A stretch of DNA of 64,000 nt from Ignavibacteriota bacterium (GTDB lineage: Bacteria; Bacteroidota; Ignavibacteria; UBA10030; UBA6906). Below are positions 20,567-63,207 of the stretch, piece by piece. The notes beneath the pieces are model-generated. The model was not told the DNA's origin. It saw nothing but the letters and a program-made list of their open reading frames with translations, and did not search any database. The position numbers and the translations under genes are program-made. How positions within the stretch are numbered: the first letter of the stretch is position 1; the number at the start of each line of letters is the position of its first letter. Location of the stretch: contig CAVVIT010000004.1 in assembly GCA_963748405.1 (NCBI GenBank), positions 84,171 through 148,170 of the forward strand. Reading direction: 5' to 3'.

Positions 20567-21889
20567 ATGGTATCGCATTCCGGAACGCCAGGTCAGGATT
20601 CGCCGCAGCTTCGGATCTCGGTGGTTTCCGCCGATGCCGACCTTGCCAGCCTGGAGGGGGAATGGAATGCCCTGTTCGCATCGGCGAACTCGTCCGTGTT
20701 CCAGTCGTACGAGTGGGCGGCGGCGTGGTGGAAGCACTTCCGGAACGGCCGCGAGCTCTACTGCCTCTGCTTCCGGTCCGGGGAGCGCCTCGTGGGGCTC
20801 GCGCCTCTCTGCCGGAGGACCGTCACGTTCCTCGGCATCCCGCTCTTCCGTCTCCTGGAATTCCTCGGACGGCCGCACGCCGACTATCTCGACATCATCG
20901 TCCTTCCGGGGTTCGGCGTTCCCGTCGTCGAAGCTTTCGTCGCCCATATCGCCTCCGGGGAGGCACACATCGACCTCCTCGACCTCGAAGAGATCCCCCC
21001 CTGGTCGCTTCTGAAAGAGCACATCGCGGCGCCGGCCGCGGCCTCCGGGATGAAGGCCGTCGTCGACAGGGGCCCGGCCTGCCCGTATATCCCCCTCCCC
21101 GGGACGTTCGATGAATTCCTCGCCGCGCTCGGCCCCAACACGCGGTACAACTACAGGCGCAAGTGGACGCGCCTGAGGGGGGGACACGCCGTCACCGAGC
21201 GCCTCGTGCGGGGAAGCGGCGAAGACGTGCCGGCCGCCCTCCGTTCGTTCATGAAGATCCACGGGGACCGGTGGAAGGGACTCGGATTTCCGAGCGCGTT
21301 CGACAATCCCATCGAGAGAGGTTTCTTCGAGGACATGACGCGCGGATTCGCCCGGAGGGACTGGCTCCGCATATTTCTCCTGGAGGTGGACGGCGTCGAC
21401 GTGGCGGCCAGCCTGGAATTTCTGTACCGGGGGCGCGCCTACATGTACCACTGCAACGCCACGGGCCCCGACGACGTGATGCGCTGCAGCCCGGGCCTTC
21501 TCGTGAAGATCTTCGCCATCCGCTCCGACATAGGGGAGGAGATGCGCGAGTACGACATGCTCAGGGGGGAGGAGAGCTACAAGTACGAGCACCTGAAAGC
21601 TCTCGAGCGGTTCAACAGCACGCTCCGGATGCCCGCGCTCCTTCCCGGGAGCAGCCTCCGGTTCCGCGTGTTCCTCCTCTGGCTTCTCGCCAGAAAATCG
21701 TTCGGCCGCACGAAGCTCGAGTATTATCAATGGCGCCGGTTCACGATTACGAAGAACCCGGGGGGGAAGGAGAAACTGGACTACCTCTTCCGCAGGATCG
21801 CCGAGGTCGGGCACATGGCGCTGCACTTCATCCGCGTCTATTTTGCCGGGGCCCCGCCCGCCGGCGAAAGCCCCGATGCTCACGATTGA
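20567..21889 (+). CDS. FemAB/CelD-like GNAT acyltransferase family protein (paralog 1)
   Basis: VFQSYEWAAAWWKHF..., the LDLEEIP middle region and YMYHCNATGPD resemble BioF2/CelD/FemAB-like (PEP-CTERM-associated FemAB-type) proteins. Unlike paralogs 2-4 it lacks the SELTRSDQ tail. Confidence 0.7.
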   Translation: MVSHSGTPGQDSPQLRISVVSADADLASLEGEWNALFASANSSVFQSYEWAAAWWKHFRNGRELYCLCFRSGERLVGLAPLCRRTVTFLGIPLFRLLEFLGRPHADYLDIIVLPGFGVPVVEAFVAHIASGEAHIDLLDLEEIPPWSLLKEHIAAPAAASGMKAVVDRGPACPYIPLPGTFDEFLAALGPNTRYNYRRKWTRLRGGHAVTERLVRGSGEDVPAALRSFMKIHGDRWKGLGFPSAFDNPIERGFFEDMTRGFARRDWLRIFLLEVDGVDVAASLEFLYRGRAYMYHCNATGPDDVMRCSPGLLVKIFAIRSDIGEEMREYDMLRGEESYKYEHLKALERFNSTLRMPALLPGSSLRFRVFLLWLLARKSFGRTKLEYYQWRRFTITKNPGGKEKLDYLFRRIAEVGHMALHFIRVYFAGAPPAGESPDAHD

Positions 21890-23066
21890 ACCGGTGACCA
21901 CAGACCGGGAGTTCTCCGCGCTGGCTCCCGACTGGAACTCCGTCCTCGCCGCTTCCGGCCGGCGGTCTCTCTACCTGACGCACGAATGGCTCGACGCCTG
22001 GTGGCGCACGCACGGGGCCCCGGGGAGCGAGCTGTGCATACTCGTCGTCCGGGACGAACAGGGGATCGCCGCGCTGGCGCCGCTCGTCCGTGTGACCCGC
22101 CGGTACCTCGGCGTCCCGGTGCGGATGATCGAATTCCTCTCGATGTCGATGTATGCCGACCATCCCGCTGCGGTGACAGGAACGCTTGACTGGATCATCC
22201 GGAGGGATCCCCTCCCGGTGATCGGCGCGCTCATCGACCACCTCCTCCGCGGGAGAGACACCTGGCAGGCCCTCCGGCTCCATCCCGTCCCTTCCGACTC
22301 GCCGTACCTGCCGCTCCTGGTCGGCGAGGCGGCGCGCCGCGATTGCACCGTCGACCGGCGGCACGTGCTCGATAACGCGGTGATCGACTGCGGCCAGGGG
22401 TGGGACCGGTTCTTCGGCGGCCTCACCGGGGACTTCCGCCGTACGCTCAGGCGGAGGGGTGAGAACCTGGCGAAGATTGGAGCGGTCGCCTTCAGCAGGA
22501 TCGACGCACTGGAGACCGCCGGTATGTTCCGCCGGCTGCTCGACGTCGAGCGGCGGAGCTGGAAGTGGGAGAGGGGGGTGAGTCTCAATTCCGCCGCGTA
22601 CGGCGATTTCTTCCCGGAGTTCGCGCGCACGGCGGCCGGGCGCGGGTGGCTTCGCACGTGGGTTCTCTCGCTCGGGGAGGAGGACATCGCCTACGAGCTC
22701 TGCGTAACATTCCAGGGCGAGCTTCACTGCCTGAAAAAGAGCTACGATGCGCGCTACAGCACTGCATTTCCGGGGGGGCTTCTCGAGCGCCGCATTTACG
22801 AGGATGCGTTCCGGGACGGGATCATCCGCATTCACACGCTCTGGGGAGATGAAGCTCACAAGCTCCGCTGGCACTCGGCGCTCGAGCCCCACGAAGAACT
22901 CCTCCTCTTCCACGATGCTCCCGCCTCCCGGAGCGCGCGAGCGTTCCTGCTCGGCGCAAAAGCCCCGCGCTTACACAGAGAGGTGGCCGAAGCGGGCAAA
23001 CGCGCTCTCCGGCGGGCCGGTCTTCACCCGCGGTGTTCCGAACTGACGCGAACGGACCAGCTGTGA
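21876..23066 (+). CDS. FemAB/CelD-like GNAT acyltransferase family protein (paralog 2)
   Basis: LYLTHEWLDAWWRTHG..., ERRSWKWERG, and the C-terminal ...PRCSELTRTDQL tail. Start chosen at MLTIEP, overlapping the paralog-1 stop by 14 nt. Confidence 0.7.
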   Translation: MLTIEPVTTDREFSALAPDWNSVLAASGRRSLYLTHEWLDAWWRTHGAPGSELCILVVRDEQGIAALAPLVRVTRRYLGVPVRMIEFLSMSMYADHPAAVTGTLDWIIRRDPLPVIGALIDHLLRGRDTWQALRLHPVPSDSPYLPLLVGEAARRDCTVDRRHVLDNAVIDCGQGWDRFFGGLTGDFRRTLRRRGENLAKIGAVAFSRIDALETAGMFRRLLDVERRSWKWERGVSLNSAAYGDFFPEFARTAAGRGWLRTWVLSLGEEDIAYELCVTFQGELHCLKKSYDARYSTAFPGGLLERRIYEDAFRDGIIRIHTLWGDEAHKLRWHSALEPHEELLLFHDAPASRSARAFLLGAKAPRLHREVAEAGKRALRRAGLHPRCSELTRTDQL

Positions 23067-24292
23067 GCGCCGCCGGTGCACACGGTACGGACGCACCGCC
23101 GCTCACCGTGACGGAGTATGGAACGGCGGACGGGTTCGCGCAACTCGAGGGTGTATGGAACGGGCTCCTTCGCTCCTCTCCCGCCCCTTCGCTCTACATG
23201 TCGTTCGAGTGGCTGCGGGCGTGGTGGGAGTGCTTCGGCGGCGGAAAGAGACGGCTCAGAATCCTCGGCGTGTCGGCGGGTGAGCGGACGATCGCGATCG
23301 CGCCGTTCATGGAGGTGCGGAGGCGGTTTCTCGGGATGCCCTACAGGACGATCGAGTTCATCTCGTCGCGCGATTACGCATTCTCGCACCTGACGATGTC
23401 GGGCATACTCGACGTCATTGCCCCCCCTGACGCCGAAGAAGCGGTCGACGCGGTCCTGCGTCACCTGCTCTCCGCCGGGGAGGACTGGGCGTTCATGAGG
23501 CTGGAGCCTCTTGCCGGTGAAGGGGTCGTCCGGCGCGTCCTCGAGGCGCGGGCGGCGGCCTTCGGGCTTCATGTGAAGGAGGGAGATACATTCGAGGCGT
23601 ACGAGGCGGAACTCGGTCCGGGGTGGGAAGCCCGCCGGATGGGGCCGGAGTCGCACCGCCGGGATCCGTCAGGGGCATTGAATGAGAAGCTCAGAAAGCA
23701 GGGGGAGATCACGTGGGAGGACACAGACGGGAGCGGCGGCCCGGAATTGCTGTTCGGGACGCTCCTCGACATCGAGCGGAGAAGCTGGAAGTGGAACCGC
23801 GGCCTGAGCATCAACGCGCTCGGCTACGGGGGGTTTTATCCCCTCTTCCTGCAATCCGCCGCCGGGAACCGCACGCTGAGGGTCACGCTCCTGAACATCG
23901 ACGGGCGCCCCGTGGCATATGTCTTCAGCGCACTGTTCGGCGGAACGCTGGAGGCGCTGAAGACCGCATATGACGGCTCGTTCGCCCGGAGTTCGCCCGG
24001 ACGTGCGGCTCTCTGGCACCACGTGCAGCAGGCCGCCGCCGAAGGGATCTCTCGCGTGAACCTGCACATCGGATCGAAGGAGTATAAATCCGAGTGGGCC
24101 ACCGGCTCCCGGATGTACACCGAGCTTTTCCTCCTTCGAACGTCAGCGCGGGGAAAGATCATCGGATTCCTTCTCTTCACGCTCGGTCTGTACGGCAGGT
24201 TTCGATTCATCCCGGATCTCACAAAGCGGGTCCTGCGGCGGCTCGGGTTCACGCCCCGCTGGTCGGAGCTCACGCGCTCAGATCAGGTCTGA
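23033..24292 (+). CDS. FemAB/CelD-like GNAT acyltransferase family protein (paralog 3)
   Basis: LYMSFEWLRAWWECFG, ERRSWKWNRG, and the C-terminal ...PRWSELTRSDQV tail. An alternative GTG start at 23063 overlaps the paralog-2 stop (GTGA). Confidence 0.7.
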   Translation: MFRTDANGPAVSAAGAHGTDAPPLTVTEYGTADGFAQLEGVWNGLLRSSPAPSLYMSFEWLRAWWECFGGGKRRLRILGVSAGERTIAIAPFMEVRRRFLGMPYRTIEFISSRDYAFSHLTMSGILDVIAPPDAEEAVDAVLRHLLSAGEDWAFMRLEPLAGEGVVRRVLEARAAAFGLHVKEGDTFEAYEAELGPGWEARRMGPESHRRDPSGALNEKLRKQGEITWEDTDGSGGPELLFGTLLDIERRSWKWNRGLSINALGYGGFYPLFLQSAAGNRTLRVTLLNIDGRPVAYVFSALFGGTLEALKTAYDGSFARSSPGRAALWHHVQQAAAEGISRVNLHIGSKEYKSEWATGSRMYTELFLLRTSARGKIIGFLLFTLGLYGRFRFIPDLTKRVLRRLGFTPRWSELTRSDQV

Positions 24293-24293
24293 C

Positions 24294-25412
24294 ATGCCAA
24301 GAGTCTCGGTGGTTCTTCCGACATACAACAGGGCGTCGACGCTCGCCCGGGCGGTGGGGAGCGTCCTTGCACAATCGTGGTCCGATTTTGAGCTGATCGT
24401 CGTCGACGACGGCTCGACGGACGGCTCGGTCGACGGGATCGCGGAGCTGGACCGCCGCATTTGCGTCCTCCGCAGGGAGAACGGCGGAGTGTCCGCCGCG
24501 CGGAACAGCGGACTCTCCCGGGCCTCCGGCGATCTCATCGCGTTCATCGATTCGGATGACGAGTGGCGCCCGTTCTACCTCCGGCTGGCGTGCGCTTTTT
24601 TTGACGCATTCCCGGCCGAGGATCTCTTCAGTACCGAGATACTCGTCCGGCTTCCCGGCGGGGAGGAGACGATTTTTCCCCGCGAGGAGGTTGCCCGGTG
24701 GTACCCCCGTCTCGCCTCCCGCGTGGGATCGCGCCTGCTCGATCTCCCTGCGGGAGAACGGGACCCGTACAGGAGGCTCTTCGGCCGGAAGATGAGCGCG
24801 GACTGGTCGAAGGGGATCGGACCGGAACCCGGCGTTGCAGGCGCAAGCCACTACCGGGGTGCCGTGTACCCGCATTTGCGCTGGGGATACATTGCCGGTC
24901 TCCAGGCGATGGTCATGACGAAGAGGGCGTCGCTTGCGGCCGGCGTCTTCGACACGAATCTCAGGACGGCCGAGGATTTCGCGTACATCGGGCGCCTCCT
25001 GAGAGCGTTTCCGCTGAACCTGGTCTCGTGCCAGGGTTGCATCAAACACGAGGAGGAGACCGAGGAGCACCTGGCAACGGGAAAACACGCTCTGGAATTC
25101 AGGGAAAACCTCTACGGCCAGTTTAAGCACATGATAGGTTCGGTCGCTCCCGAAAGAAGCGATCAGCGCATTCTTCTCGGGTTCAAGGCCTTCGACGTGG
25201 CTGTGGCTGCTCTTGACGCGGGGGACCGACTGAAGGCCCTCCGGTATCTCGATACGGCCTGCGCTTCGATAGGCGGGTTCCGGCGCGGGGCCATCCTCCG
25301 GTTCATTCTCCGCACGGTCCGTTCTACGCGCCTGACCCGGTTTTTCTACCGGCTGATGAATGGGATCGAGCACAGGCTCCGTTCCCGCGTTCCATCGGGC
25401 GGGGGTGCGTGA
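24294..25412 (+). CDS. glycosyltransferase family 2
   Basis: VSVVLPTYNRASTL...LIVVDDGSTDGS...IAFIDSDDEW is the canonical GT2 DxD architecture. It sits between FemAB-like paralogs 3 and 4. Confidence 0.8.
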   Translation: MPRVSVVLPTYNRASTLARAVGSVLAQSWSDFELIVVDDGSTDGSVDGIAELDRRICVLRRENGGVSAARNSGLSRASGDLIAFIDSDDEWRPFYLRLACAFFDAFPAEDLFSTEILVRLPGGEETIFPREEVARWYPRLASRVGSRLLDLPAGERDPYRRLFGRKMSADWSKGIGPEPGVAGASHYRGAVYPHLRWGYIAGLQAMVMTKRASLAAGVFDTNLRTAEDFAYIGRLLRAFPLNLVSCQGCIKHEEETEEHLATGKHALEFRENLYGQFKHMIGSVAPERSDQRILLGFKAFDVAVAALDAGDRLKALRYLDTACASIGGFRRGAILRFILRTVRSTRLTRFFYRLMNGIEHRLRSRVPSGGGA

Positions 25413-25414
25413 CG

Positions 25415-26605
25415 ATGTATGAGGTGCGCGAACATACGGCGTTCGAGGAGATGCTCCCGATTGCCGGCGAGTGGACCCGGCTGGCGCTCGCGCCGGGGGG
25501 GCCGGGGATATTCGGGACGTTTGAGTGGGCTGCAACCTGGTGGAAATGCCACGCCGGGGAAGGTCGGAGTCTCATGGTTCTCTCCGCCTGGCTTGACGGG
25601 AAGATCGCGTGCATCGCTCCTCTTATGACAGGGAGATCGTGGTTCGGACCGTTTCCCGTCTTGACGGTGGAATTCATCTCGACGTGGAAGTTCGCGGGGT
25701 CTGCCGCCAGCGTCCTCGGATCGATGGACTTCGTCGCAGACCCGGCTCACAGGGGGGAAGCCATTGATGCGACGCTTCTTTATATTGAAGAGAAGGAGTG
25801 GGATCTCCTCCGGCTTCACCCGATTCCCGAAGATTCAACGGCAATACCCGCGCTGAAACGCTGGGGCTCCTCCGGAGGGAGATCGGTCGTCGTGCAGCAC
25901 GTGTTCGACAACGCCGTCCTCCGGTCGGGGGGCGGAGATGAAGGTTTCCGGTCGCACCTCTCTTCGAAGTTCAAGGCCAGGCTCCGCCAGGCCGGGGACA
26001 AGCTCGGACGGCGCGGCGCGGTGGACTTCGTCGAATACACGTCTCCGGGGGATGTCCCCCGGTCGTTCGAGCGAATCACCGCCATCGAACGGGGAAGCTG
26101 GAAATGGGAGAAGGGGATCGCCATTAGCTCTGCGGCCTACCGGGAGTTCTTTCCCGCGATCGCGCTTTCGGCTGCCGGCAGGGGCTGGCTGAAGCTGGGG
26201 TTCCTCCGGCTGGATGGGAGGGAGATCGCGTATTCTGTTATGGTGGTCACGGGGGAGACCGCCACGTTCCTCAAGACGGGATACGATGACGCGCACGACG
26301 ACTGCTCTCCCGGGAGCCTGCTGATGGACTGGACATTCGCCCGACTCGCGCGCGAAGGTGTGCGCCGGATCGACATGTTTTCCGGCGACTGGGGATACAA
26401 GCAGCGCTGGCAGGCGGTGCCGGAACCTCACTGCGAGGTGCAGGTCTTCAGAGGCAGTGCGTATGCCCGGTTCCTCCGATTCATGTACTGGAATCTTGGA
26501 TTGTACGGCAAAGCGAGAACGCCGGTCCTCCTGTTCAAGCGCGTTCTGAGGAAATGCGGCATCCCCTGGAGGCATTCTGAGCTCACACGGTCCGATCAAC
26601 TCTGA
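25415..26605 (+). CDS. FemAB/CelD-like GNAT acyltransferase family protein (paralog 4)
   Basis: IFGTFEWAATWWKCHAG, ERGSWKWEKG, and the C-terminal ...WRHSELTRSDQL tail. ATG at 25415; an alternative GTG at 25409 overlaps the GT2 stop. Confidence 0.7.
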   Translation: MYEVREHTAFEEMLPIAGEWTRLALAPGGPGIFGTFEWAATWWKCHAGEGRSLMVLSAWLDGKIACIAPLMTGRSWFGPFPVLTVEFISTWKFAGSAASVLGSMDFVADPAHRGEAIDATLLYIEEKEWDLLRLHPIPEDSTAIPALKRWGSSGGRSVVVQHVFDNAVLRSGGGDEGFRSHLSSKFKARLRQAGDKLGRRGAVDFVEYTSPGDVPRSFERITAIERGSWKWEKGIAISSAAYREFFPAIALSAAGRGWLKLGFLRLDGREIAYSVMVVTGETATFLKTGYDDAHDDCSPGSLLMDWTFARLAREGVRRIDMFSGDWGYKQRWQAVPEPHCEVQVFRGSAYARFLRFMYWNLGLYGKARTPVLLFKRVLRKCGIPWRHSELTRSDQL

Positions 26606-27817: not shown

Positions 27818-28062
27818 GGATTCAGGGCCGGGCAATGCATAGAGATCGGTGAAAAATTCTCAAAAATTGCGATTCTGTGATGGGAATCATAAATTGACAT
27901 CGCATAAACGCTACATTGCGTACGAACCGTTTCTCTCGTTTCACTCCCCCCCCGGACCATCCCGCCCCCAGGCAGGATGAACGCGGCTTTATGTTTCCGG
28001 CTTTGAGATTGTCCCCGCTTCACCGAACGAAGTTGCACTGCCATCCACACAATGAGGAACAT

Positions 28063-30624
28063 ATGAACACATTGTCTCGATATACGTTACTGTTGGGTCT
28101 GCTCCTTGTCCTGGGAGTGTCGCTTTCCCTGGCACAGCCTACGATTTCGGGTCTCAGTGCACAGAGCGGAAAGGCGGGCACATCGTTCACGATCACGGGT
28201 ACAAACTTTGACGGCTCCGCGTCGAACGATGTGGTGCGGATCGGCGGGGTGAAAGCAGCTGTGACCGGTGCGACCGCGACGTCGCTGACGGTCACCGTAC
28301 CGACGAATGCAGTTTCGGGAATTGTCACTGTCACCGTCACGCCTCTTCACCTGACGGCATACTGGTCGCTTCCCTTCAGCGTGACGTATGTGTTCCCCGG
28401 CCCGATTGACACGGCTTCGTTTGCACCCTCCGTTGGATTTGCGGCGGGGACAGCGGCGAGCATCGCGTTCGCCGGCGATTTCGACGGTGACGGCAAAACC
28501 GATATCGGGGTCGTCAACAACGGTGACAACACGATCTCCTTGTATCTGAACACGAGTTCGGTGGGATCGATAACCTCGGCTTCGTTCGGTTCACAGTTTG
28601 TGCTGACGACGGGGCAGCATCCCTGGGGTGTTGCCGTCGCGGATATCGACGGCGACGGGAAACTCGATATCGTCGTCTGCAACGGCTTGGACAGCACCAT
28701 CTCGGTATTCAGGAACACGAGTTCGCCCGGTTCGTTCAGTTTCGATCCGAAGGTGGATTTCAAGACCGGCTACGGTCCGCACGACATCGTCGTCGCCGAT
28801 TTCAATCTCGACGGCCGGCCGGACGTCGTCGTCTCCGACTACGCAGGCGGGACCTCCGGCCTGGGGACGATCTCGGTCCTCCGCAACGTTTCCACGGGAT
28901 CCACGATCGCCTTCACGAAGCACATCGACATACCGGTTGGTGACGGCCCGAGAGGGATCGCCGCCGCGGACATGGACGGTGACGGTTACCTTGACCTTGC
29001 AGTCGCTAATTTCGACGGCGGCTCGATTTCGCTGTTCCAGAACCAGTCAAAATCCACCCCGGATTCGATCGCGTTTATTATCCAGCACACGGAAAATGGA
29101 TTCCTTTCTCCGGACGCGGTGGCGTTCACCGACGTTGACGGCGACGGCGTTCCGGACGTGATTGCCGGCGGAGCCGGTGACGGACTCTGGCTGTATCGCG
29201 GTGATGCAACCTGGTCGTTCGAAAGCGCCGTGCTCTACCACAAAGGGAGCGGGCAGGGGAACGTGCTGGGTATCGATATGAACGGGGACGGGAAGCCTGA
29301 CGTCGTGACCGGGAACGCGCTGGAATCTCCTGTCCGCGTCGGGACCGTTTCGATCCTCCAGAATGCGACCGTGGGGATCGGAACGTTCTCGTCGGCATCA
29401 CTGCGCGATTCGGTGAATTACCTCGTGCCGAGCCTCAACTACGGCGTCGCCGTGGCGGATGTCGACGGTGACGGACGGCCCGATCTCATCAGTGCCAATT
29501 ACTACACGAAGCAGGTCGGCGTCCTCAGGAGCCGGCTCAGCGACGCGCACACGATCACGCCGACGGTGACCGGGCCGGGCGCGATTTCTCCGCCGGCAAC
29601 GTTCACCATCTACCACGGACATGATACGACGTTCACGATCACCGCAAACGGCGGATCGCACGTCGACAGCGTGGTTGTGGACGGCGTGAACCAGTATGTC
29701 CTCCCGACCTACACGTTCACGAACGTGACGTCGAATCATACGATCAAGGCGTACTTCTCGTCGGGAGCGGTCTTTGCCATCACCTCGAGTGCGGGAGCCA
29801 ACGGCACAATTTCGCCGAATGGCACGGTCAATGTTCCCTCGGGAGGCACGCAGGCGTACACGATCACGCCGAACTCCGGGTACGGCATTGCGACGGTGCT
29901 TGTCGACGGGTCGCCCGTCGCCAATACCGCAAAGTATACATTTACCAACGTGCTGCTGTCGCACACGATCAGCGCGACGTTCTCTGTGGGCGTAAACATC
30001 CCGCTGAAGGTCTTTCTGCAGGGTCCGGCTGCAGCGTCGCCGGACACAATGTTGCCGACGCTCAGGACATCGGGCACTCTTGCTGCTCATTTTACATCGG
30101 TCCCGATTCCCTCGAATGCAATCGACAGCATCAATGTGGAGCTCAGGAACGCCCAGACGACTGCCGGATCGACAACAAGGAAGTTCCAGCCGGCGTGGCT
30201 CCTTTCCAACGGCACGATCACGAGCTTCACCGATACGACAAAGAACTACGTCCGGTTTGACACAAGCGCCGGTTCGTACTATATTGTCGTGCGGCACCGG
30301 AACCACCTTGCGGTCATGAGCGCGGCCGCGATCGCGCTGACGTCGACGGACACCCTCGCCTACGACTTCACGACGGGACAGGCAAAGGCATTCGGGACAA
30401 ACCCGATGGCACAGGTGGGGACGAAGTTTTGCATGATCGCTGGCGACGCGAATGCGGATGGTCAGATTACAACTCTTGATTTTAGTCCTTGGCTGGCAAA
30501 CGCAAAGGCAGCTCTTACCGGTTACTATAGCACCGATATGAATTGCGACGGACAGAATACTACGCTGGATTTCACGCTGTGGCTGGCAAATGCAAAGAGC
30601 GCTCCGACGAGTCAGGTTCCGTGA
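28063..30624 (+). CDS. secreted IPT/TIG + 7x FG-GAP beta-propeller + Ig-like repeat protein with C-terminal dockerin-like domain
   Basis: Signal peptide MNTLSRYTLLLGLLLVLGVSLSLA. IPT-like PTISGLSAQSGKAGTSFTITGTNFDG. Seven D-x-D/N-G-D-G-x-x-D FG-GAP repeats (FDGDGKTDIGVV ... VDGDGRPDLISAN). Two Ig-like repeats ending YTFTNV..HTI.A.F. C-terminal DANADGQITTLDFSPWLANAK / DMNCDGQNTTLDFTLWLANAK are two dockerin type-I Ca-binding segments. GAGGAA RBS. Confidence 0.75.
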   Translation: MNTLSRYTLLLGLLLVLGVSLSLAQPTISGLSAQSGKAGTSFTITGTNFDGSASNDVVRIGGVKAAVTGATATSLTVTVPTNAVSGIVTVTVTPLHLTAYWSLPFSVTYVFPGPIDTASFAPSVGFAAGTAASIAFAGDFDGDGKTDIGVVNNGDNTISLYLNTSSVGSITSASFGSQFVLTTGQHPWGVAVADIDGDGKLDIVVCNGLDSTISVFRNTSSPGSFSFDPKVDFKTGYGPHDIVVADFNLDGRPDVVVSDYAGGTSGLGTISVLRNVSTGSTIAFTKHIDIPVGDGPRGIAAADMDGDGYLDLAVANFDGGSISLFQNQSKSTPDSIAFIIQHTENGFLSPDAVAFTDVDGDGVPDVIAGGAGDGLWLYRGDATWSFESAVLYHKGSGQGNVLGIDMNGDGKPDVVTGNALESPVRVGTVSILQNATVGIGTFSSASLRDSVNYLVPSLNYGVAVADVDGDGRPDLISANYYTKQVGVLRSRLSDAHTITPTVTGPGAISPPATFTIYHGHDTTFTITANGGSHVDSVVVDGVNQYVLPTYTFTNVTSNHTIKAYFSSGAVFAITSSAGANGTISPNGTVNVPSGGTQAYTITPNSGYGIATVLVDGSPVANTAKYTFTNVLLSHTISATFSVGVNIPLKVFLQGPAAASPDTMLPTLRTSGTLAAHFTSVPIPSNAIDSINVELRNAQTTAGSTTRKFQPAWLLSNGTITSFTDTTKNYVRFDTSAGSYYIVVRHRNHLAVMSAAAIALTSTDTLAYDFTTGQAKAFGTNPMAQVGTKFCMIAGDANADGQITTLDFSPWLANAKAALTGYYSTDMNCDGQNTTLDFTLWLANAKSAPTSQVP

Positions 30625-30656
30625 TTGACAAATAACCACAGAGTGAGGAGTATATC

Positions 30657-31826
30657 ATGAAAAACTTTCTATTCACGATAGCAGTTATTGTCCTGAGCAT
30701 CTCGATGGCGACAGCTCAGACCTCTATTCAACAGCAACTCGTGGTATCTCAAAACGGTGCCCAAAATGGTCAACCGTTCAAGGTTGACATTCAGCTCAAG
30801 GGATCAACTCTAACCGGGGCAAACACCATAAACTCACTCACGATCGACGTGAAGTACGAAACTGCCAAACTGAGCTTTCCGACAGTGGCAGGATCGATTA
30901 TCGCGGCGACCGCGTGGAATGCAGGCATCAATGCCCTTGCCTACACCCGGACACCAAGTAACCCCGGCACAGGGTTCGTCCGACTGCTTCTCACAGGAAA
31001 CAACGTCAACGGAAATGCTGATGGTACGCCCGCTGGTTTTGATGTTACGACCTCATATCAGACTATTGCGACGCTGACCTTCACAATTCTTGACCAAACG
31101 CAGTTGGCGACCCTGTCCATTGATGGATCTTCCAATGCGTTTGCTTTTTTCTCGACAGAGAATAACGGCGACAACTCGAACGGATTTGTGAGCATTTCCG
31201 GTGCGAATCTGACTGCGACGGGGATCAATAATCAGCCCCTCCCCATCCAGCTCGCAACATTCCAGCCGACGTCCGTGTCGTCGAAGTCGGTGACGCTCTC
31301 CTGGGCGACGCTGAGCGAAACGAACAACTACGGATTCGAAGTGCAGCGCTCTGCCGCGAAGACGACAGGGTTCGCGACGATCCCCGGGAGCTTCACGAAG
31401 GGGAACGGGACGACGACCGCACGCCACACGTATTCGTACACGGATGCGGCACCGACGACATCCCAGCCGTACTACCGGCTCCGCCAGATCGACCTGAACA
31501 ACGCGGACCATTACAGTGACGTGCTTGACGTCACGGGCGTTGCGATTGCGCCTGTGATCCCGACGGAGTTTGCGATGCGTCAGAACTATCCGAACCCGTT
31601 CAACCCGACGACGATCGTGGAGTTCGACCTTCCGAAAGATTCTCACGTGACGCTCGAGCTCTACAACATACTCGGACAGAGAGTCATGGAGATACTCAAC
31701 GAGGTCCGTCTCGCGGGAACACAGCGGGTCCAGGTGGATGCCTCACGGCTCGCGAGTGGTGTATATCTCTACAGGCTTGCGGCTGGGGATAAGGTGTTCA
31801 TGAAAAAGATGACACTGATCAAGTAG
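30657..31826 (+). CDS. secreted cohesin-like domain + FN3-like protein with T9SS C-terminal sorting domain
   Basis: Signal peptide MKNFLFTIAVIVLSISMATAQ. FKVDIQLKGSTLTGANTINSLTIDVKYETAKLSFPTVAGSII resembles cohesin beta-sandwich strands. FN3-like SVTLSWATLSETNNYGFEVQR. The C-terminus NYPNPFNPTTIVEFDLPKDSHVTLELYNILGQRV...SGVYLYRL...KKMTLIK is a T9SS (Por) sorting-domain signature. Confidence 0.7.
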   Translation: MKNFLFTIAVIVLSISMATAQTSIQQQLVVSQNGAQNGQPFKVDIQLKGSTLTGANTINSLTIDVKYETAKLSFPTVAGSIIAATAWNAGINALAYTRTPSNPGTGFVRLLLTGNNVNGNADGTPAGFDVTTSYQTIATLTFTILDQTQLATLSIDGSSNAFAFFSTENNGDNSNGFVSISGANLTATGINNQPLPIQLATFQPTSVSSKSVTLSWATLSETNNYGFEVQRSAAKTTGFATIPGSFTKGNGTTTARHTYSYTDAAPTTSQPYYRLRQIDLNNADHYSDVLDVTGVAIAPVIPTEFAMRQNYPNPFNPTTIVEFDLPKDSHVTLELYNILGQRVMEILNEVRLAGTQRVQVDASRLASGVYLYRLAAGDKVFMKKMTLIK

Positions 31827-31853
31827 GGAATCCTCCTGATGCATCTCGCATCA

Positions 31854-31889
31854 CACCCCGGTCCGGATTACGGACCGGGGTGTTTCATT
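31854..31889 (+). terminator. rho-independent terminator (12-bp GC stem CACCCCGGTCCG/CGGACCGGGGTG + TTTCATT)
   Basis: Perfect inverted repeat 28 nt after the stop at 31826, followed by a T-rich tract. It is followed by an AT-rich intergenic region before the next gene. Confidence 0.7.
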
Positions 31890-56760: not shown

Positions 56761-56793
56761 CGAGGGGGGCTCAGATGAGCCCCCCGGCTTTTG

Positions 56794-56867
56794 TGCGCCT
56801 GGAGGGATTTGAACCCCCAACCCTCAGATCCGAAGTCTGATGCTCTATCCAGTTGAGCTACAGGCGC
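56794..56867 (-). tRNA. tRNA-Arg (anticodon TCG)
   Basis: The reverse complement GCGCCTGTAGCTCAACTGGATAGAGCATCAGACTTCGGATCTGAGGGTTGGGGGTTCAAATCCCTCCAGGCGCA folds as a cloverleaf: acceptor 7 bp, D-stem GCTC/GAGC, anticodon stem TCAGA/TCTGA with loop CTTCGGA (U33, anticodon TCG, purine at position 37), T-loop TTCAAAT. No encoded CCA. Confidence 0.85.
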
Positions 56868-57068
56868 TGCATATTCGAGCTGTTTTAGCCGATTCCTGGC
56901 CGGAAGAACCTCTCCGTGGACAGGTTTACGTCCAATACTTGTTACAATTTGGTAACAATTGGTATTAGGCCTTGCCGGCTTGGATTGGCTTATGCGACAA
57001 TAAGGTAACAAGTGTTGACCGGGAATTCAAGGAGGAAAGAATCAGGCACGGTCACGTATATGATAGAG

Positions 57069-57101
57069 GAGCCCAATGAAATTTGTCGGGCTCTTTTTTT
57101 T
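57069..57101 (+). terminator. intrinsic terminator-like hairpin (GAGCCC...GGGCTC) followed by T8
   Basis: Seen in sequence: 6-bp GC stem, 13-nt loop, then TTTTTTTT. Orientation suits plus-strand transcripts entering the island from the host side. It abuts the 3' end of the minus-strand repressor gene. Confidence 0.5.
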
Positions 57102-57528
57102 ACGTCACGAGCGCCGTCACCACTCGCACGATCCTCTCCCGTTCCTCTTGGCTGAAGCGCTTCTTCCCTGATGCGACCAGGACCGAGGCTATATCTGAGA
57201 GAATCAAACTGAGTTCCTTTTCCGGACGCCAGTCGATATCCTGCAATAAGGCAAACCGGTTCTTTTTGCTGTCAAAGTGCACTCTTGCTCCCATTGATCT
57301 CGCTAAGGAGGCAAGAGTCGATCTTCGAGGTGGTCTCGTGACCTGTTTCTCCGATTTGTTCAGGATTTGGAAGATCGTCGCGGCACTGAGCTCGGCTCTC
57401 TTGGATAGGGTGAACTGGGATATTCCCTTTTCATCCATGATCCAGCGAATGAGCTTCTGGACGCCGGACTGTGAATAGGGGGCCGCAAAGATGGCTTTTA
57501 CTGCTCGGGCGGTGATCTTGGGTTTCAT
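57100..57528 (-). CDS. XRE-family helix-turn-helix transcriptional regulator (phage-repressor-like)
   Basis: GISQFTLSKRAELSAATIFQILN is a canonical HTH_XRE (helix-turn-helix) motif. 142 aa. Divergently arranged from the island replication genes. Low-GC codon usage. Confidence 0.75.
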   Translation of the reverse strand: MKPKITARAVKAIFAAPYSQSGVQKLIRWIMDEKGISQFTLSKRAELSAATIFQILNKSEKQVTRPPRRSTLASLARSMGARVHFDSKKNRFALLQDIDWRPEKELSLILSDIASVLVASGKKRFSQEERERIVRVVTALVT

Positions 57529-57554
57529 AGGGGTTACTTGGGCTTTTATTGTTT

Positions 57555-57583
57555 AATATAGTTTTTTTATTTGACTTTATCAA
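57555..57583 (-). promoter_or_regulatory. sigma70-like promoter for the repressor gene (-35 TTGATA, 17-nt spacer, -10 TATATT on minus strand)
   Basis: The reverse complement of the plus-strand sequence reads TTGATAaagtcaaataaaaaaacTATATT. It lies ~25 nt upstream of the repressor ATG at 57528 and overlaps the rightward promoter P1. Confidence 0.5.
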
Positions 57584-57599
57584 TGGAATTGCATATAGT
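57571..57599 (+). promoter_or_regulatory. sigma70-like promoter P1 (TTGACT, 17-nt spacer, TATAGT), rightward
   Basis: Seen in sequence: TTGACTttatcaatggaattgcaTATAGT. It is followed by the 12-bp palindrome ACGGGATCCCGT at 57610-57621, a candidate operator. Confidence 0.5.
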
Positions 57600-57630
57600 A
57601 GACTTGGGGACGGGATCCCGTTGAAACCCC

Positions 57631-57659
57631 TTGACAGAGAGCCTGATTTTGAATAGAAT
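57631..57659 (+). promoter_or_regulatory. sigma70-like promoter P2 (TTGACA, 17-nt spacer, TAGAAT), rightward
   Basis: Seen in sequence: TTGACAgagagcctgattttgaaTAGAAT, ~150 nt upstream of the gene at 57809. Confidence 0.5.
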
Positions 57660-57808
57660 AGGGTAGGGGTCATTCGATCCCCCCAGCCTTCCGAAAAATG
57701 ATCGGTCGGCACGTGGAGTTGGATGAAGAGATGGATGCTGACGATGGTCATCGATTGACGTACCCGCCTTTTCTACCCAATCCCTAAGAAGCCAAAGGAA
57801 CAAGAATC

Positions 57809-58078
57809 ATGAAGCATTTTCTCACTAAAGATCTATATCTATCCAGCTACCTCGCTTCTTCAGGTTGCCCGCTGGAGTCGCACAACCGAGTTGACGGAAT
57901 AACGATGTTCTCCTTCCTCCGCACTCGCGAGCTGGAGATGCTCGTTGAATCGTACTTCTCATTGAAGGCATCCGTAAATCCGATAAAGTATGATGAAGCC
58001 ATGAGGAACCTACGAACCCTGGCAATCGGTCCCAAGTCTCGACACGAAAATACTCTATCCAGCCGGGTGGCTGTGTGA
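57809..58078 (+). CDS. hypothetical small protein (89 aa) of the mobile element, first gene of the rightward operon
   Basis: AAGGAA RBS 6 nt before ATG. Low-GC codon usage consistent with neighbouring island genes. No recognisable family (positionally Cro/excisionase-like). Confidence 0.5.
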   Translation: MKHFLTKDLYLSSYLASSGCPLESHNRVDGITMFSFLRTRELEMLVESYFSLKASVNPIKYDEAMRNLRTLAIGPKSRHENTLSSRVAV

Positions 58079-58153
58079 GTTGAGAGCGACGGTAGTCGGC
58101 TCTATTTGAATGTGAGTCTGAAATGGCTCACCTAAAGACCAATATGTTCAACA

Positions 58154-60286
58154 ATGTTAAATGATGAAGATGTAAAACAAACTGACGCATCTGTTTCTGC
58201 GACACCCAATGACCAGGCACCGCCTGGGATCCTCGATTCAATCCTCGTTTCATATTCTGAACGCGTTACAGAACCGCAGACCACGCGCGTAACACTTGGT
58301 TCGATACTTACTGAGATTCAATCATCACCGGATCTTCAGCACAAGATTGCCGCTGTCCGTAGCCTTTCCGAACCTAAAGAACGGCAGGATCTGAAGAGGA
58401 AGACCCTCCCGTGGTTTTCGATGGCCGAGTACAAGAACAACCATCGGGACAACCTCTCCTTTCTATCGACGAAATATGTCATCCTCGATCCAGATCACAT
58501 CGCTGGACACCTCAGTGACCTGCTGGTCAAGGTCAGAACCGATCCAAAAATCTTTGTTGCCTTCGTCTCTCCATCGGGAGATGGGCTCAAATTGATTGTC
58601 GAGCTCGAGAATGCCGTGACCGCCGCAGAGGACTTCCGGGGGGCGTTCGGCTACCTTCGGGACATCATCGAGAAGGAATACGGAATTGCTATCGATGGGG
58701 ACGACGACCCTGCCCGAGCGTGCTATCTGTCATATGATCCTGAGCTATGGGTCAATCTGAACAGAAAAGCCATGCAAATACCCACGGTAACAAAGGTGGA
58801 TTCGTTACAGGTTAGGATTGATCTCTCTCGCACATCGTCGATGCTGGAAGCTCTTTCCGGTTCAACGTCACCTGGGCGAACCCATAAGGCAACGCAAATC
58901 ATTGGGCGTTTCATCGAGAGAGGAATCCGACTGGATGAGGCCATGGAATTGGTAAGGATCTGGGACCAGTCGAAGAATACCCCTCCTCTTGGGGAGCAGA
59001 AGATTGCGTCGACCGTGCGAGACATGTATAAGCGGTACAATGACGGAGGGTTCGCGCAAAAGCTGGATCGTTTCTACTCCTACCGGAGCGATATCTACGA
59101 TGTCGGAATCGTCGGAGAGAACTTCTTTCTGGAGAATGTCGGACAGAGAAAGTTCTTTATCCAGACAGATGCCGCGGATGTTGAGACGCAGAAGCGGTTC
59201 CTGGAACATGTTGTGAAGGAGAAACACATACGCCACCTACAGCGAATCGATCATCTCGGGGACATGAATGCCGAGAAATCTGTCGTTGAATACGTCTCCG
59301 ACAAGGGTCTCTTTGAAGTGCACTATTCGCCTGTCGCGGTAAGGGTCAGGGGCAACGATTTCGTTGAAACCTGGCTGTCGTCAACTTTTGGAATCCATAA
59401 GGATTTCATCAAGGAGTGGCTCGCGATGTACTGCTACACGAATTACCGCAAGCTCCCGACATTGGTTCTGAAAGGTGATCGTGGAACCGGAAAGAACACA
59501 TTTGCGGAGTCAGTCCTCTCCATCTTTCCATCGATATCTCAGTTCTGGCACGGGGAAGAGAAGGGCTTTACCCCCGAAGTGCAAAAGAAATTGCTCATTG
59601 CAGATGAGTCGGTTTCGGCTAATGAAAAGCAATACCGAATGCTGAAGCAGAGATCGGGCCAGAAGATGTCAGTCGTCAATCAGAAATTCCTCCCGGAGTA
59701 CCAGGTCCTCAACAACATGAACATCATCATCATGTCGAACGAACACACGCCGATATTCGTGCAGAAGGACGAGGAGCCCACGAGCGTGAAAAACAACCAG
59801 TTCTTCGTCTACACGTTGCCGAAGCTGGAAGGGGAGATTGACCCTGATTTCGGCCAAAAAATCGAAGATAGGATGGGGCACTATGTAAGGACGGAACTAA
59901 GGAATGTCTACATGAAGGCTCAGGCATATGCCGGTTGTCGGTACTCCATACCGACGCCCATCACGGATGACGAGAAGGCTCTCTTCAACGTGAACATGAC
60001 TGGGCTGGAAGCCGAAGGCATGAAATTCCTCCAGAAAATGGTGGAGGCGAGCGGTTCGGCCTATACGAGTTTCTTCGAGAATGGGCTGTTCCCATCGTCA
60101 TTCATCGATGCCTTTACGATCTCAAAGGGCTACACGAAGAATGGAGTTATCCGAAACCTTAAGGAGAAGGATTACCTGGTGCCTGCCGATCCAGCCAGGA
60201 AAATGGTCAAAGGGGAGAGGCAATACTGCTACCAGATGACCGACAAACTGAAATCGTGGTACGAAAACCAGAAGCTTGCCCAGTGA
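58154..60286 (+). CDS. replication protein: N-terminal primase-polymerase (AEP/VirE_N, BT4734-like) domain fused to a C-terminal D5/P4-type SF3-helicase-like P-loop NTPase
   Basis: N-terminus: YVILDPDH (DxD), FVSPSGDGLKLIV (sGxGxH/K-type motif), ACYLSYDPE (third acidic motif) are archaeo-eukaryotic primase-like. C-terminus: VLKGDRGTGKNTFAES (Walker A variant) and KKLLIADES (Walker B), with the domain organisation of phage/plasmid primase-helicases. Confidence 0.7.
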   Translation: MLNDEDVKQTDASVSATPNDQAPPGILDSILVSYSERVTEPQTTRVTLGSILTEIQSSPDLQHKIAAVRSLSEPKERQDLKRKTLPWFSMAEYKNNHRDNLSFLSTKYVILDPDHIAGHLSDLLVKVRTDPKIFVAFVSPSGDGLKLIVELENAVTAAEDFRGAFGYLRDIIEKEYGIAIDGDDDPARACYLSYDPELWVNLNRKAMQIPTVTKVDSLQVRIDLSRTSSMLEALSGSTSPGRTHKATQIIGRFIERGIRLDEAMELVRIWDQSKNTPPLGEQKIASTVRDMYKRYNDGGFAQKLDRFYSYRSDIYDVGIVGENFFLENVGQRKFFIQTDAADVETQKRFLEHVVKEKHIRHLQRIDHLGDMNAEKSVVEYVSDKGLFEVHYSPVAVRVRGNDFVETWLSSTFGIHKDFIKEWLAMYCYTNYRKLPTLVLKGDRGTGKNTFAESVLSIFPSISQFWHGEEKGFTPEVQKKLLIADESVSANEKQYRMLKQRSGQKMSVVNQKFLPEYQVLNNMNIIIMSNEHTPIFVQKDEEPTSVKNNQFFVYTLPKLEGEIDPDFGQKIEDRMGHYVRTELRNVYMKAQAYAGCRYSIPTPITDDEKALFNVNMTGLEAEGMKFLQKMVEASGSAYTSFFENGLFPSSFIDAFTISKGYTKNGVIRNLKEKDYLVPADPARKMVKGERQYCYQMTDKLKSWYENQKLAQ

Positions 60287-60292
60287 GGAGAC

Positions 60293-60501
60293 GCATTGCC
60301 CATCGATTGCCTGTAGTTGGGCAATCCTTGGGCAGTGTTTTGAGTAGGAATAGCAATGCTTTTCATATGATTTGCCCATTTACCTGTAAGAGATTCAGTT
60401 AGAGAAAGAAAAGAAAGTGGTGAAAGAGAATATAGCGTTGAACCTTCAGCGCACGGGGTATAGGTGAAAATTGAAAATGGGCAGGCAAATGGGCAATTGC
60501 G
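60293..60501. repeat. iteron-like array: at least 6 copies of TGGGCA(A/G)/TGCCCA in both orientations, with an adjacent AT-rich tract (putative replication origin)
   Basis: Seen in sequence: ATTGCCCA (60295), TTGGGCAAT (60317), TTGGGCAG (60328), TTTGCCCAT (60371), AATGGGCAG (60476), AATGGGCAATTGC (60487), then an AT-rich tract at 60570-60600. A further copy CTTGGGCAATTG lies at 61181. Confidence 0.5.
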
Positions 60502-60847
60502 AGGCCAAAAACAAAAAGATAAAAGCCCAAAAGCCTGAACGACGGGGGGAGGGGCTTTCCGCGAAGCAGATCTTTTCTTTTAGTTTTTATTTTGGATCCG
60601 CCCGCTGGCTCGCGTTATTCGGAGAAGATTAGAAAGCACTCTCCCTCTGTGGTGGATCTCGGGGATAATATGTCGAAATCCGGTCAATCTGAAGCCGATT
60701 CAGGGAAAAGGTGACGGCAACACAAGAAAAATAAACAGGGCGCTCGGTAACGACCACAGTTCCGGAAAAGACTCGGGCCAGTGAAAACGTATCACCATCT
60801 TCAGGATGAACGGCTCGAGACTCGAAGACATTACAAAGGAGAGCTAT

Positions 60848-61024
60848 ATGACAACTGAGAAAGCACAGAAGATCCTCAACGCCATCAAGAAACGAGACCG
60901 TCTCGCCAGCAAGCACTGGACCCCCTACCAAGGTCCAGCGGATTGGGACTTCATTGTACTGAACTCATCAAAAGAGGAACTGGAAGAAGGGAAGGAGGAG
61001 AAGTCGGAGGTCAGCAATGGATGA
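60848..61024 (+). CDS. hypothetical small protein (58 aa)
   Basis: AAGGAGAG RBS 5 nt upstream of ATG 60848 (MTTEKAQKILNAIKK...). The longer ORF from 60806 lacks an RBS. Confidence 0.35.
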   Translation: MTTEKAQKILNAIKKRDRLASKHWTPYQGPADWDFIVLNSSKEELEEGKEEKSEVSNG

Positions 61025-61193
61025 GGATATGCTGGCTCGGATGAATGACAATCAGAACAGGGACCGCATTCTCGAAGATCTCAACCGCTCAACTCTGGAC
61101 GACGTCGGGCCGGTGGGCAAAACGCAGGCGGCAAAAATGCTGCAGGAGATGAACAATCTCTCAAGTGAGGAGTCCCGACTCTTGGGCAATTGA
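61017..61193 (+). CDS. hypothetical small protein (58 aa)
   Basis: ATG overlaps the upstream stop (ATGGATGA), which suggests coupling. MDEDMLARMNDNQNRDRILEDL... Followed by the terminator hairpin. Under 60 aa, so not in the ORF track. Confidence 0.3.
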   Translation: MDEDMLARMNDNQNRDRILEDLNRSTLDDVGPVGKTQAAKMLQEMNNLSSEESRLLGN

Positions 61194-61198
61194 AAAGC

Positions 61199-61235
61199 CG
61201 TCCCAATTTCTTGGCCGTTGGGACTTTGTAATCCC
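61199..61235 (+). terminator. rho-independent terminator-like hairpin GTCCCAA(n11)TTGGGAC + TTTGT
   Basis: Seen in sequence immediately after the stop at 61193: ccGTCCCAAtttcttggccgTTGGGACtttgtaat. Confidence 0.5.
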
Positions 61236-61688
61236 CCCTCAAAGAATTCCCGAGAATTACCGTGGTTGACAGATTTGCTGCTCGAAAATCTCGGTTGAGA
61301 ATTCTCCAAAATCTCGATCCCTGGGGTATATATGATGAAGGTGCCATTCCTGCGAAACATCAAAATATACTTGCGATAAAGGCAAATGAGTGACTTGACA
61401 CGAAAGTTGCAGACAATAGGAAGAAATTCGTCAGGTTCTGGCGTAGACTTCTCGGGACTGACAGATTTTATTAGGTTTGCGAATCGCGGATCAAGGGGAT
61501 ATATTAGGTGACATTGATAGCCGCCTCGTTTGATTGCATCGTATCTGATCGATGATAACTAAGTCCTGTTTGCTCAGCCGAATGGCCAGTTGAGCGATTG
61601 GATCCGATGCAGCGAGTCAATCCTCGCTATTCCGTTCTTACACCCTTCATCTGTTTTTCACAATTCCTCTCTGACTCGGAGTTGGATC

Positions 61689-63185: not shown

Positions 63186-63207
63186 AACCCCGAGAGAAGG
63201 AGAAAAG

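Follow-up and report, generated by a model that had tools for sequence, protein, structure and literature searches.

Assembly of extracellular proteins through cohesins and dockerins is understood almost entirely from the cellulosomes of Gram-positive bacteria. A close known counterpart of the locus described here is the type II anchoring system, in which a cohesin (Coh) is paired with an X-module-dockerin (XDoc) dyad, as with CipA and SdbA, OlpB or Orf2p in C. thermocellum and with ScaA and ScaB in A. cellulolyticus. We analysed a 64 000-nucleotide stretch of contig CAVVIT010000004.1 from an Ignavibacteriota bacterium, referred to hereafter as the window, which contains two adjacent genes on the plus strand, designated gene A (28063-30624) and gene B (30657-31826). 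Their coordinates were confirmed by an open reading frame (ORF) check, and a public source calls an identical product of 853 amino acids for gene A. As in the CipA/SdbA and ScaA/ScaB systems, the protein to be docked, here the secreted cargo protein A, carries a predicted XDoc dyad at its C-terminus, and the predicted cohesin lies on a dedicated anchor, the 389-amino-acid protein B, which ends in a type IX secretion system (T9SS) C-terminal sorting domain (CTD). We consider it probable that protein B is attached to the cell surface via Sec and the T9SS and that protein A docks on its cohesin through the Ca-loaded XDoc. The pair represents one instance of a putative cellulosome-like attachment system that is widespread among Ignavibacteria-type bacteria and has apparently gone undescribed.

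The likeness to the clostridial type II system extends to the single cohesin of protein B, as in SdbA, to the predicted structures of the window modules, which match both chains of the type II complexes 2b59, 4u3s and 4wi0, and to the presence in the same family of adaptors with cohesins and XDoc. Where clostridial anchors have SLH repeats and a Gram-positive wall, protein B has a T9SS type-A CTD and a presumably diderm host. Non-cellulolytic proteins serve as cargo, unlike in cellulosomes (an FG-GAP propeller in the window, and at other loci lipases, peptidases and deacetylases), and the modules share only 9-19% sequence identity with known cohesins and XDocs. The X module also differs from that of type II XDoc, belonging to a different, larger family with an RHRNHL motif. 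Glycoside hydrolase complexes of Clostridium perfringens (the cohesin-FN3 of GH84C/NagJ and the cohesin of GH33) likewise depend on a non-cellulosomal pair; their modules differ from the present ones in being carried by large secreted Gram-positive enzymes that form enzyme-enzyme complexes, with no adjacent anchor gene and no T9SS. Protein B resembles known T9SS type-A cargo (gingipains of P. gingivalis, mirolase of T. forsythia, NucA of F. johnsoniae) in combining a Sec signal peptide with a C-terminal Ig-like sorting domain. Unlike in those proteins, its passenger would be a protein-protein docking module and not an enzyme or adhesin, so that function would be supplied in trans by a second protein lacking a CTD.

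In the Cloacimonadota bacterium 'Ca. Stygibacter', a cohesin protein with a T9SS-type CTD has been proposed to hold dockerin-tagged enzymes at the surface (Williams et al., 2021; PMC8542988). As here, the host belongs to the Fibrobacteres-Chlorobi-Bacteroidetes (FCB) group and the proposal is purely genomic. The 'Ca. Stygibacter' scaffoldin is a protein of 3,755 amino acids with tandem InterPro-detectable cohesins and CBM2/CBM3 modules (PMC8542988), unlike protein B with its 389 amino acids and one cohesin missed by Pfam, encoded directly after its cargo; the X-module-dockerin architecture and the co-varying specificity types are further differences. A 2025 review of cellulosomes mentions Gram-negative bacteria only for engineered display, and our literature search returned no account of an XDoc/Coh-FN3-CTD two-gene cassette or of cohesin-dockerin systems in Ignavibacteria. 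The loci presented here point to a natural modular cohesin-XDoc system in diderm Ignavibacteriota/Bacteroidota-type bacteria, with dozens of metagenomic loci and many classes of cargo enzyme. Most of these cohesins escape the Pfam cohesin model, which is probably why the system has gone unnoticed in the annotation of metagenome-assembled genomes (MAGs).

Domain structure of the dockerin and cohesin proteins

AlphaFold2 modelling of residues 645-853 of protein A predicted a single compact unit (pLDDT 96.2, pTM 0.92) consisting of a beta-sandwich and two loop-helix repeats. The sandwich is an X module of about 150 amino acids (29992-30438; this and all further features of the pair lie on the plus strand) with the motif KVFLxGP...RHRNHLAxMS, which is conserved in our alignments A2 and A5. 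In the model it lies directly N-terminal to the dockerin (30439-30621) and is packed on it as one unit, the arrangement of an X-module-dockerin dyad. The dockerin comprises two duplicated segments of the expected length of about 22 residues (795-815 and 825-845), each with a 12-residue EF-hand-like Ca-binding loop, DANADGQITTLD at residues 795-806 and DMNCDGQNTTLD at 825-836, followed by a helix (residues 160-171 and 190-200 of the model). At the helix positions the repeats hardly differ (TTLDFSPWLANAK and TTLDFTLWLANAK), and in this respect they resemble dual-binding type I dockerins. In a Foldseek search against the PDB, the top six matches of the tail were all type II X-dockerin chains (4u3s_B, 4wi0_B, 2b59_B, 4fl4_I/C and 5g5d_B), aligned over about 214 columns with E-values of 6e-5 to 1.4e-3. 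With normalisation to the XDoc chain, TM-scores of 0.51-0.59 were reached for the five chains of 156 residues and of 0.32 for 4fl4_I with its 309 residues.

At the sequence level, protein A scored 22.4 bits (E 1.4e-4) with Dockerin_1 (PF00404), just missing the gathering threshold of 22.9, and other fragments of it gave 19-21.8 bits. Borderline when taken alone, the assignment was settled by its relatives, by a profile search of the PDB and by loop conservation. Relatives of the last 209 residues matched Dockerin_1 in 18 of 61 cases (E<=0.01, best 6e-9), and dockerins made up 33 of the top 34 matches when the XDoc family profile was compared with all PDB sequences, the matches spanning both Ca-binding repeats. 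Across 82 non-identical relatives, the loop positions were conserved as follows (first/second repeat): D1 93/100%, N/D3 89/93%, D/N/S5 99/100%, G6 84/74%, I/V8 97/79% and D12 99/99%. A preliminary description of the locus, made from the sequence, had read the tail as a canonical type I dockerin. The dockerin itself stands, as judged by the relatives, the PDB profile and Foldseek, even though the window protein falls just below the HMM (hidden Markov model) cut-off; the type I label does not, given the fused X module as in type II XDoc. On its predicted structure, the tag of protein A is an XDoc dyad instead of a type I dockerin standing by itself. Among the XDoc proteins reaching as far as the last residues of protein A (851-853), most have (Q)VP as a conserved terminus; V208 and P209 show at least 90% conservation in alignment A2, and roughly a third of the 82 relatives aligned with hmmalign have a residue in the final columns. 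This terminus possibly packs against the X module or serves as a recognition element.

Protein B starts with a signal peptide (MKNFLFTIAVIVLSISMATA|Q), followed by a cohesin-like beta-sandwich (residues 23-193; 30723-31235), an FN3-like domain (residues 194-295; 31236-31541) and a T9SS type-A CTD (residues 311-389; 31587-31823). The CTD, already recognised in the preliminary description, was found by TIGR04183 (46.2 bits, cut-off 23) and PF18962, Por_Secre_tail (43 bits, cut-off 27), at residues 311-385 of 389. It thus exceeds the curated cut-offs and forms the very end of a protein that starts with a Sec signal peptide; its fold matched the CTDs of mirolase and NucA. The cohesin was less accessible. 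No match to Pfam Cohesin or fn3 was obtained with protein B at E<=1, nor to Cohesin with the isolated domain at E<=10. A phmmer search of protein B against all PDB sequences gave no match, and hmmsearch with a 34-member profile of its N-domain found no cohesin there, so a cohesin call would have been impossible from sequence alone.

The call became possible through structure prediction and through the family. AlphaFold2 modelled protein B from a 57-sequence alignment as three beta domains (pLDDT 82.9). The first Foldseek match was a cohesin-FN3 construct from C. perfringens (2w1n, E 3.9e-8); most of the matches after it were cohesins of types I and II, among them the SdbA cohesin 2bm3. The model also matched 4u3s_A, 4wi0_A and 2b59_A, the partner chains of the top entries found with the tail of protein A. 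The predicted domain corresponds to the beta-sandwich (jelly-roll) of about 140 residues expected of a cohesin, a fold found by two independent methods. The FN3-like domain showed fold matches to the cohesin+FN3 of 2w1n, titin FnIII and Ihog FNIII. Within the 34-member family of the N-domain, Pfam Cohesin was the only recurrent family, with eight matches (best E 2.4e-4). In addition, relatives combining a cohesin with an XDoc exceeded the Pfam Cohesin cut-off of 24.1 bits (94.9, 37.4, 33.9 and 25.9 bits), and the same proteins weakly matched the HMM of the gene B N-domain, thereby bridging the gene B family to canonical cohesins. On this structural and family-level evidence, protein B is assigned as a cohesin, an FN3-like domain and a CTD. 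The cohesin of the preliminary description was upheld by its predicted fold and by the family-level Pfam signal, and the fold matches of the next domain suggest that its FN3 domain may be right too; neither was found by Pfam in the window protein, and the proposed check against PF00963 failed for it.

A single-sequence search with the window cohesin domain against 1.84 billion cluster representatives returned 70 clusters at E<=1e-3, which indicates a cohesin subtype of modest size within a larger superfamily. The FN3-like and CTD half of protein B (31236-31823) is a module found behind many passengers, present in more than 590 genome stretches and often several times per locus. Its motifs (LPIQLASF...SETNNYGFEVQ...QNYPNPFNP) are highly conserved, and the genomes carrying it are of the Ignavibacteriota type. 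Relatives come from Ignavibacteriota/Bacteroidota MAGs that are rich in CTD proteins. Three contigs with T9SS CTD-type proteins (L012, L051 and L083) are labelled as Actinomycetota, Chromatiales and Heimdallarchaeota MAGs and are probably mis-binned or mislabelled.

Conserved adjacency and co-variation of XDoc and cohesin

In all six cohesin-family loci reached via homologues, an XDoc gene lay directly upstream, in different neighbourhoods. The gene B homologues were 76% identical to the window protein in L001/L002, 44% in L003, 41% in L004 and 36-38% in L085 (36% by BLASTP, 38% relative to the first sequence in alignment A1). A second sample, blind to cohesins, consisted of 80 metagenome loci collected through the X-module motif HRNHL[AGP][VI]M[ST] only and scanned with three HMMs of our own (cohesin domain, FN3+CTD module, XDoc). 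In it, 83 XDoc ORFs had 450 bp or more of sequence downstream. The next gene on the same strand was a cohesin-family ORF in 30 of these; in 10 it was an FN3+CTD ORF with an unassigned N-domain of 150-260 amino acids, in four an FN3+CTD ORF with another N-terminal length, in six another XDoc gene and in 33 nothing recognisable. The gap from stop codon to ATG had a median of about 35 nt in 34 homologous pairs. As a control we used 80 genome loci seeded by the FN3+CTD module in proteins not matching the cohesin-family HMM. XDoc was directly upstream of the seeding protein in two of the 80, and no cohesin-family gene was found in these loci (about 0.85 Mb). The co-conservation on which the preliminary description had suggested checking its proposal was thus found, and the pair is a conserved operon-like cassette. 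At one locus (L085:4204-11835), a GDSL-lipase-XDoc gene, a Coh-FN3-CTD anchor gene and two further XDoc genes follow in a row, with an MBOAT gene upstream, an order suggesting that a single anchor gene may serve several cargo genes.

Co-variation was assessed by mirror-tree analysis of pairwise distance matrices from 25 complete adjacent pairs, with the last 70 amino acids of the neighbouring protein taken as the dockerin. Cohesin distances correlated with those of the neighbouring dockerin (r=0.77, Mantel p ~5e-4); the corresponding values were r=0.23 for the CTD of the same protein and r=0.17 for the X module of the neighbour. Controlling for the CTD left a partial correlation of 0.76. When only pairs with less than 40% cohesin identity were considered, the correlation with the dockerin was r=0.46 (p ~5e-4) and that with the CTD r ~0. 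Sorted by cohesin cluster, the dockerins formed visibly distinct sequence types. If nothing but linked inheritance were at work, every module should show it to the same degree, and a signal specific to the dockerin therefore suggests co-diversifying recognition pairs.

These data bear on the possibility that the two proteins do not interact specifically at all. The EF-hands of protein A would then be structural or have their partner elsewhere, protein B would be an unrelated T9SS beta-sandwich protein, for example a carbohydrate binder, and adjacency would reflect co-regulation. Modules resembling dockerins and cohesins occur widely with no partner demonstrated for them (Peer et al., 2009, as cited in PMC8542988), and the invisibility of the window cohesin to Pfam would fit such a view. 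The same gene order in unrelated neighbourhoods speaks against it, as do the divergence of the cohesin with the dockerin and not with the X module or CTD, and the matches of both models to partner chains within the same crystal structures. We regard a lack of specific interaction as very unlikely.

Proposed cargo, adaptors and anchors, and possible routes to the surface

The wider family contains cargo proteins, adaptors and anchors. XDoc was C-terminal in nearly all cases, with at most 33 residues following it in 104 of 105 proteins. Behind the only non-C-terminal XDoc (L125:2-5035) lies a Fibrobacter succinogenes major domain (PF09603, E 5e-34), a C-terminal module different from the CTD and associated with Fibrobacter surface proteins. 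Passengers of XDoc included BNR propellers, FG-GAP, GDSL lipases, Laminin_G_3, M14 peptidases, polysaccharide deacetylases and beta-helix domains. Cohesins also occur within XDoc proteins: there are four Pfam cohesins (94.9 bits) in L147 (3213-5633), one each in L119 (614-1771), L130 (1288-2466) and L137, and two window-type cohesins each in P0241 and P0253. L116:1762-2934 is a further adaptor- or scaffoldin-like protein with a cohesin and a C-terminal XDoc. The cohesin-bearing XDoc proteins are mid-sized; none was found among the seven of the largest XDoc proteins that were scanned. Anchors occurred as Coh-FN3-CTD of about 370-400 amino acids, as Coh-CTD of about 285-300 amino acids and in larger forms such as Coh-FN3-3xF5/8C-CTD. 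The proteins with one, two or four cohesins and an XDoc imply hierarchical or chain-forming assemblies. By analogy with the cellulosome, the family would have a hierarchy of cargo, adaptor and anchor in which the T9SS CTD replaces the SLH repeats.

In the mechanism that we propose, genes A and B would constitute an operon-like cassette for a cognate cohesin-dockerin pair. Protein B would reach the periplasm via Sec, and its type-A CTD would then direct passage through the T9SS. Like other type-A CTD proteins it would probably be attached at the cell surface, with its single cohesin held out on the FN3-like spacer. The XDoc of protein A is predicted to bind this cohesin non-covalently via its two Ca2+-loaded EF-hand repeats, and the propeller displayed at the cell surface would plausibly serve in adhesion or in the binding or modification of polysaccharide. 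The core of the preliminary description, a non-cellulosomal module of a cohesin-T9SS protein and a dockerin-tagged propeller protein, agrees with the predicted folds, the sequence data, the adjacency and the co-variation.

Several points weigh against surface docking as proposed here. The window cohesin has no match to Pfam Cohesin (PF00963), the profile of its family found no cohesin in the PDB, and the window dockerin is 0.5 bit under its Pfam cut-off. About 40-47% of the sampled XDoc genes lack a cohesin gene next to them (nothing recognisable follows in 33 cases and another XDoc gene in 6), so adjacency is frequent and not obligatory. Adjacent genes are co-inherited, which inflates mirror-tree correlations, although the low values of the CTD and X-module controls argue against co-inheritance as the sole cause. 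Type-A CTD proteins are released and not anchored in some Bacteroidota. Finally, and overlooked in the preliminary description, protein A carries no recognisable signal for export across the outer membrane, having a Sec signal peptide only, with neither a CTD nor a lipobox. It would thus lack a known outer-membrane route, and plain docking at the surface would need an extra step.

That step may be provided by the partner. Coh-FN3-CTD proteins might act as trans-acting T9SS adaptors, the cohesin-XDoc complex forming in the periplasm and the CTD of protein B carrying the CTD-less protein A through the T9SS, so that protein B would be both adaptor and anchor. XDoc proteins have signal peptides of the signal peptidase I (SPase I) type (53 of 64 scanned 5'-complete ORFs, with a possible lipobox in only two) and almost all are without a CTD of their own, XDoc and CTD occurring together in 2 of 122 relatives. 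Their passengers, including GDSL lipases, M14 peptidases, polysaccharide deacetylases and BNR propellers, are typical of extracellular proteins; the XDoc occupies the extreme C-terminus, the usual place of the CTD in T9SS cargo, and the CTD is provided by a translationally close partner gene (median gap ~35 nt). Proteins pass through the T9SS in a folded state, and the CTD itself has to be folded (PMC9251779), which makes periplasmic assembly followed by co-export reasonable. On the other hand, our literature search found no precedent for hitch-hiking on the T9SS, many XDoc genes have no adjacent cohesin-CTD gene, and 853 amino acids of cargo on a 389-residue carrier may be sterically demanding. 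We put forward co-export only tentatively, as the less probable course of events. Extended to the family, Coh-FN3-CTD proteins could conceivably export propeller proteins, lipases, peptidases, deacetylases and multi-cohesin adaptors in this manner, as folded hetero-complexes, and subsequently tether them; the dockerin would then serve indirectly as a sorting tag for the T9SS, in several specificity types that co-evolve.

Anchoring may also be absent, the CTD of protein B directing secretion and being removed, with A and B released as a soluble complex into the matrix or exopolysaccharide (EPS). Many type-A CTD proteins of non-Porphyromonas Bacteroidota are released, and C. perfringens cohesin-FN3 proteins, including the best Foldseek match 2w1n, form secreted enzyme complexes. 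However, a minimal Coh-FN3-CTD protein, consisting of a binding module and a spacer only, makes most sense as an anchor, and the existence of Coh+XDoc adaptors and of XDoc proteins with several cohesins implies a hierarchy whose last member is anchored, which renders release rather unlikely. Under surface docking, the reading that we prefer, the system raises the question for T9SS biology of how CTD-less dockerin proteins reach the surface. For surface-display engineering, it would offer naturally diversified, apparently orthogonal cohesin-dockerin types on a Gram-negative secretion and anchoring route.

Passenger domains and genomic setting of the pair

Upstream of the XDoc, protein A has a Sec signal peptide of the SPase I type, as read from the sequence (MNTLSRYTLLLGLLLVLGVSLSLA|QP; 28063-28134), with no lipobox cysteine. 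An IPT/TIG domain follows at residues 26-93 (28138-28341; PF01833, E 2.7e-9, 37.4 bits against a cut-off of 20.9). The FG-GAP/VCBS beta-propeller (28393-29544) was detected as seven stretches each by Pfam FG-GAP_3 (E 1.3e-44, 151 bits) and FG-GAP (E 6e-28, 96.7 bits). Each of its seven repeats has a putative Ca-binding DxDxDG motif (residues 139, 194, 246, 303, 357, 405 and 466, spaced by 48-61 residues), indicating membership of the FG-GAP/VCBS family; weak PDB sequence matches were to CRTAC1 and integrin alpha propellers. Two tandem repeats of about 72 amino acids (residues 496-568 and 569-643; 29548-29991) are 42% identical to each other (BLASTP, E 1e-12). They gave no Pfam match and are presumed to be small beta domains. 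The IPT/TIG domain, the seven-repeat propeller and the two further repeats had all been named in the preliminary description, whose statements on coordinates, EPS-gene neighbours and flanking regions were likewise borne out.

The 245-bp intergenic region upstream of gene A (27818-28062) is the presumed promoter region of the pair; a scan for a sigma-70 consensus promoter found no site there. The 32-nt spacer between the genes (30625-30656) contains GAGGAG 8 nt 5' of the gene B ATG, which suggests from the sequence that the two genes may be co-transcribed. Downstream of gene B, a GC-rich hairpin with a 13-bp stem and a 5-nt loop is followed by UUUCAUU (31852-31889, dG -36.4 kcal/mol, z -6.1). 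It likely represents the terminator of the two-gene unit and agrees with the strong terminator reported earlier at 31854-31889; the hairpin proper spans about 31852-31882, and the U tract after it is weak. The flanking intergenic regions, earlier called AT-rich, have a GC content of 0.51 (245 bp, 5') and 0.52 (397 bp, 3') compared with 0.62 for the whole window.

On its 5' side the pair is preceded by four Acetyltransf_6 and two GT2 genes of an EPS-type locus; on the 3' side follow a GT4/WecA-like priming enzyme with CoA_binding_3 and then RmlC, RmlB and an SLBB/Wza-like export protein. The same EPS locus is shared by L001 and L002, L003 adjoins a flippase, methyltransferases and GT4s, and L085 adjoins MBOAT and GDSL genes. 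The neighbourhood of L004 has no polysaccharide genes, and other pairs lie next to a mixture of genes (OHCU decarboxylase, VTC, XdhC, GH25, TPP enzymes, single Bac_transf and SLBB matches), ruling out an EPS role across the family. The EPS setting is specific to the lineage (the window, L001/L002, L003 and perhaps L085). The earlier assignment of the pair to an EPS system accordingly holds for these loci and not for the other pairs, which lie in unrelated neighbourhoods. As the context recurs only in the window lineage, an EPS-linked role is plausible there and is not a property of the family.

Codon usage varies along the locus. The GC content at third codon positions is 0.67-0.68 in gene B and in the end of gene A that encodes the XDoc (29995-31826), compared with 0.76-0.87 in the flanking biosynthesis genes, which is compatible with a cassette inserted into the EPS locus or with another codon usage of secreted proteins. 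The four Acetyltransf_6 (FemAB/GNAT-like) genes at 20567-26605 are paralogous, encode about 400 amino acids each and are interleaved with a GT2 gene; four such paralogues are an unusual number for one EPS cluster. At the far end of the window lies a tRNA-Arg(TCG) gene (56793-56867, minus strand), beyond which the GC content falls from about 0.60 to about 0.48 up to the window end (64000). This part includes an ORF (58154-60286) with BT4734-like_N, DUF5906 and a weak PriCT_1 match, resembling a primase/helicase, and another (61590-63185) with a weak match to Peptidase_C39_2. The region from 56793 to 64000 looks like a mobile element integrated at the tRNA gene.

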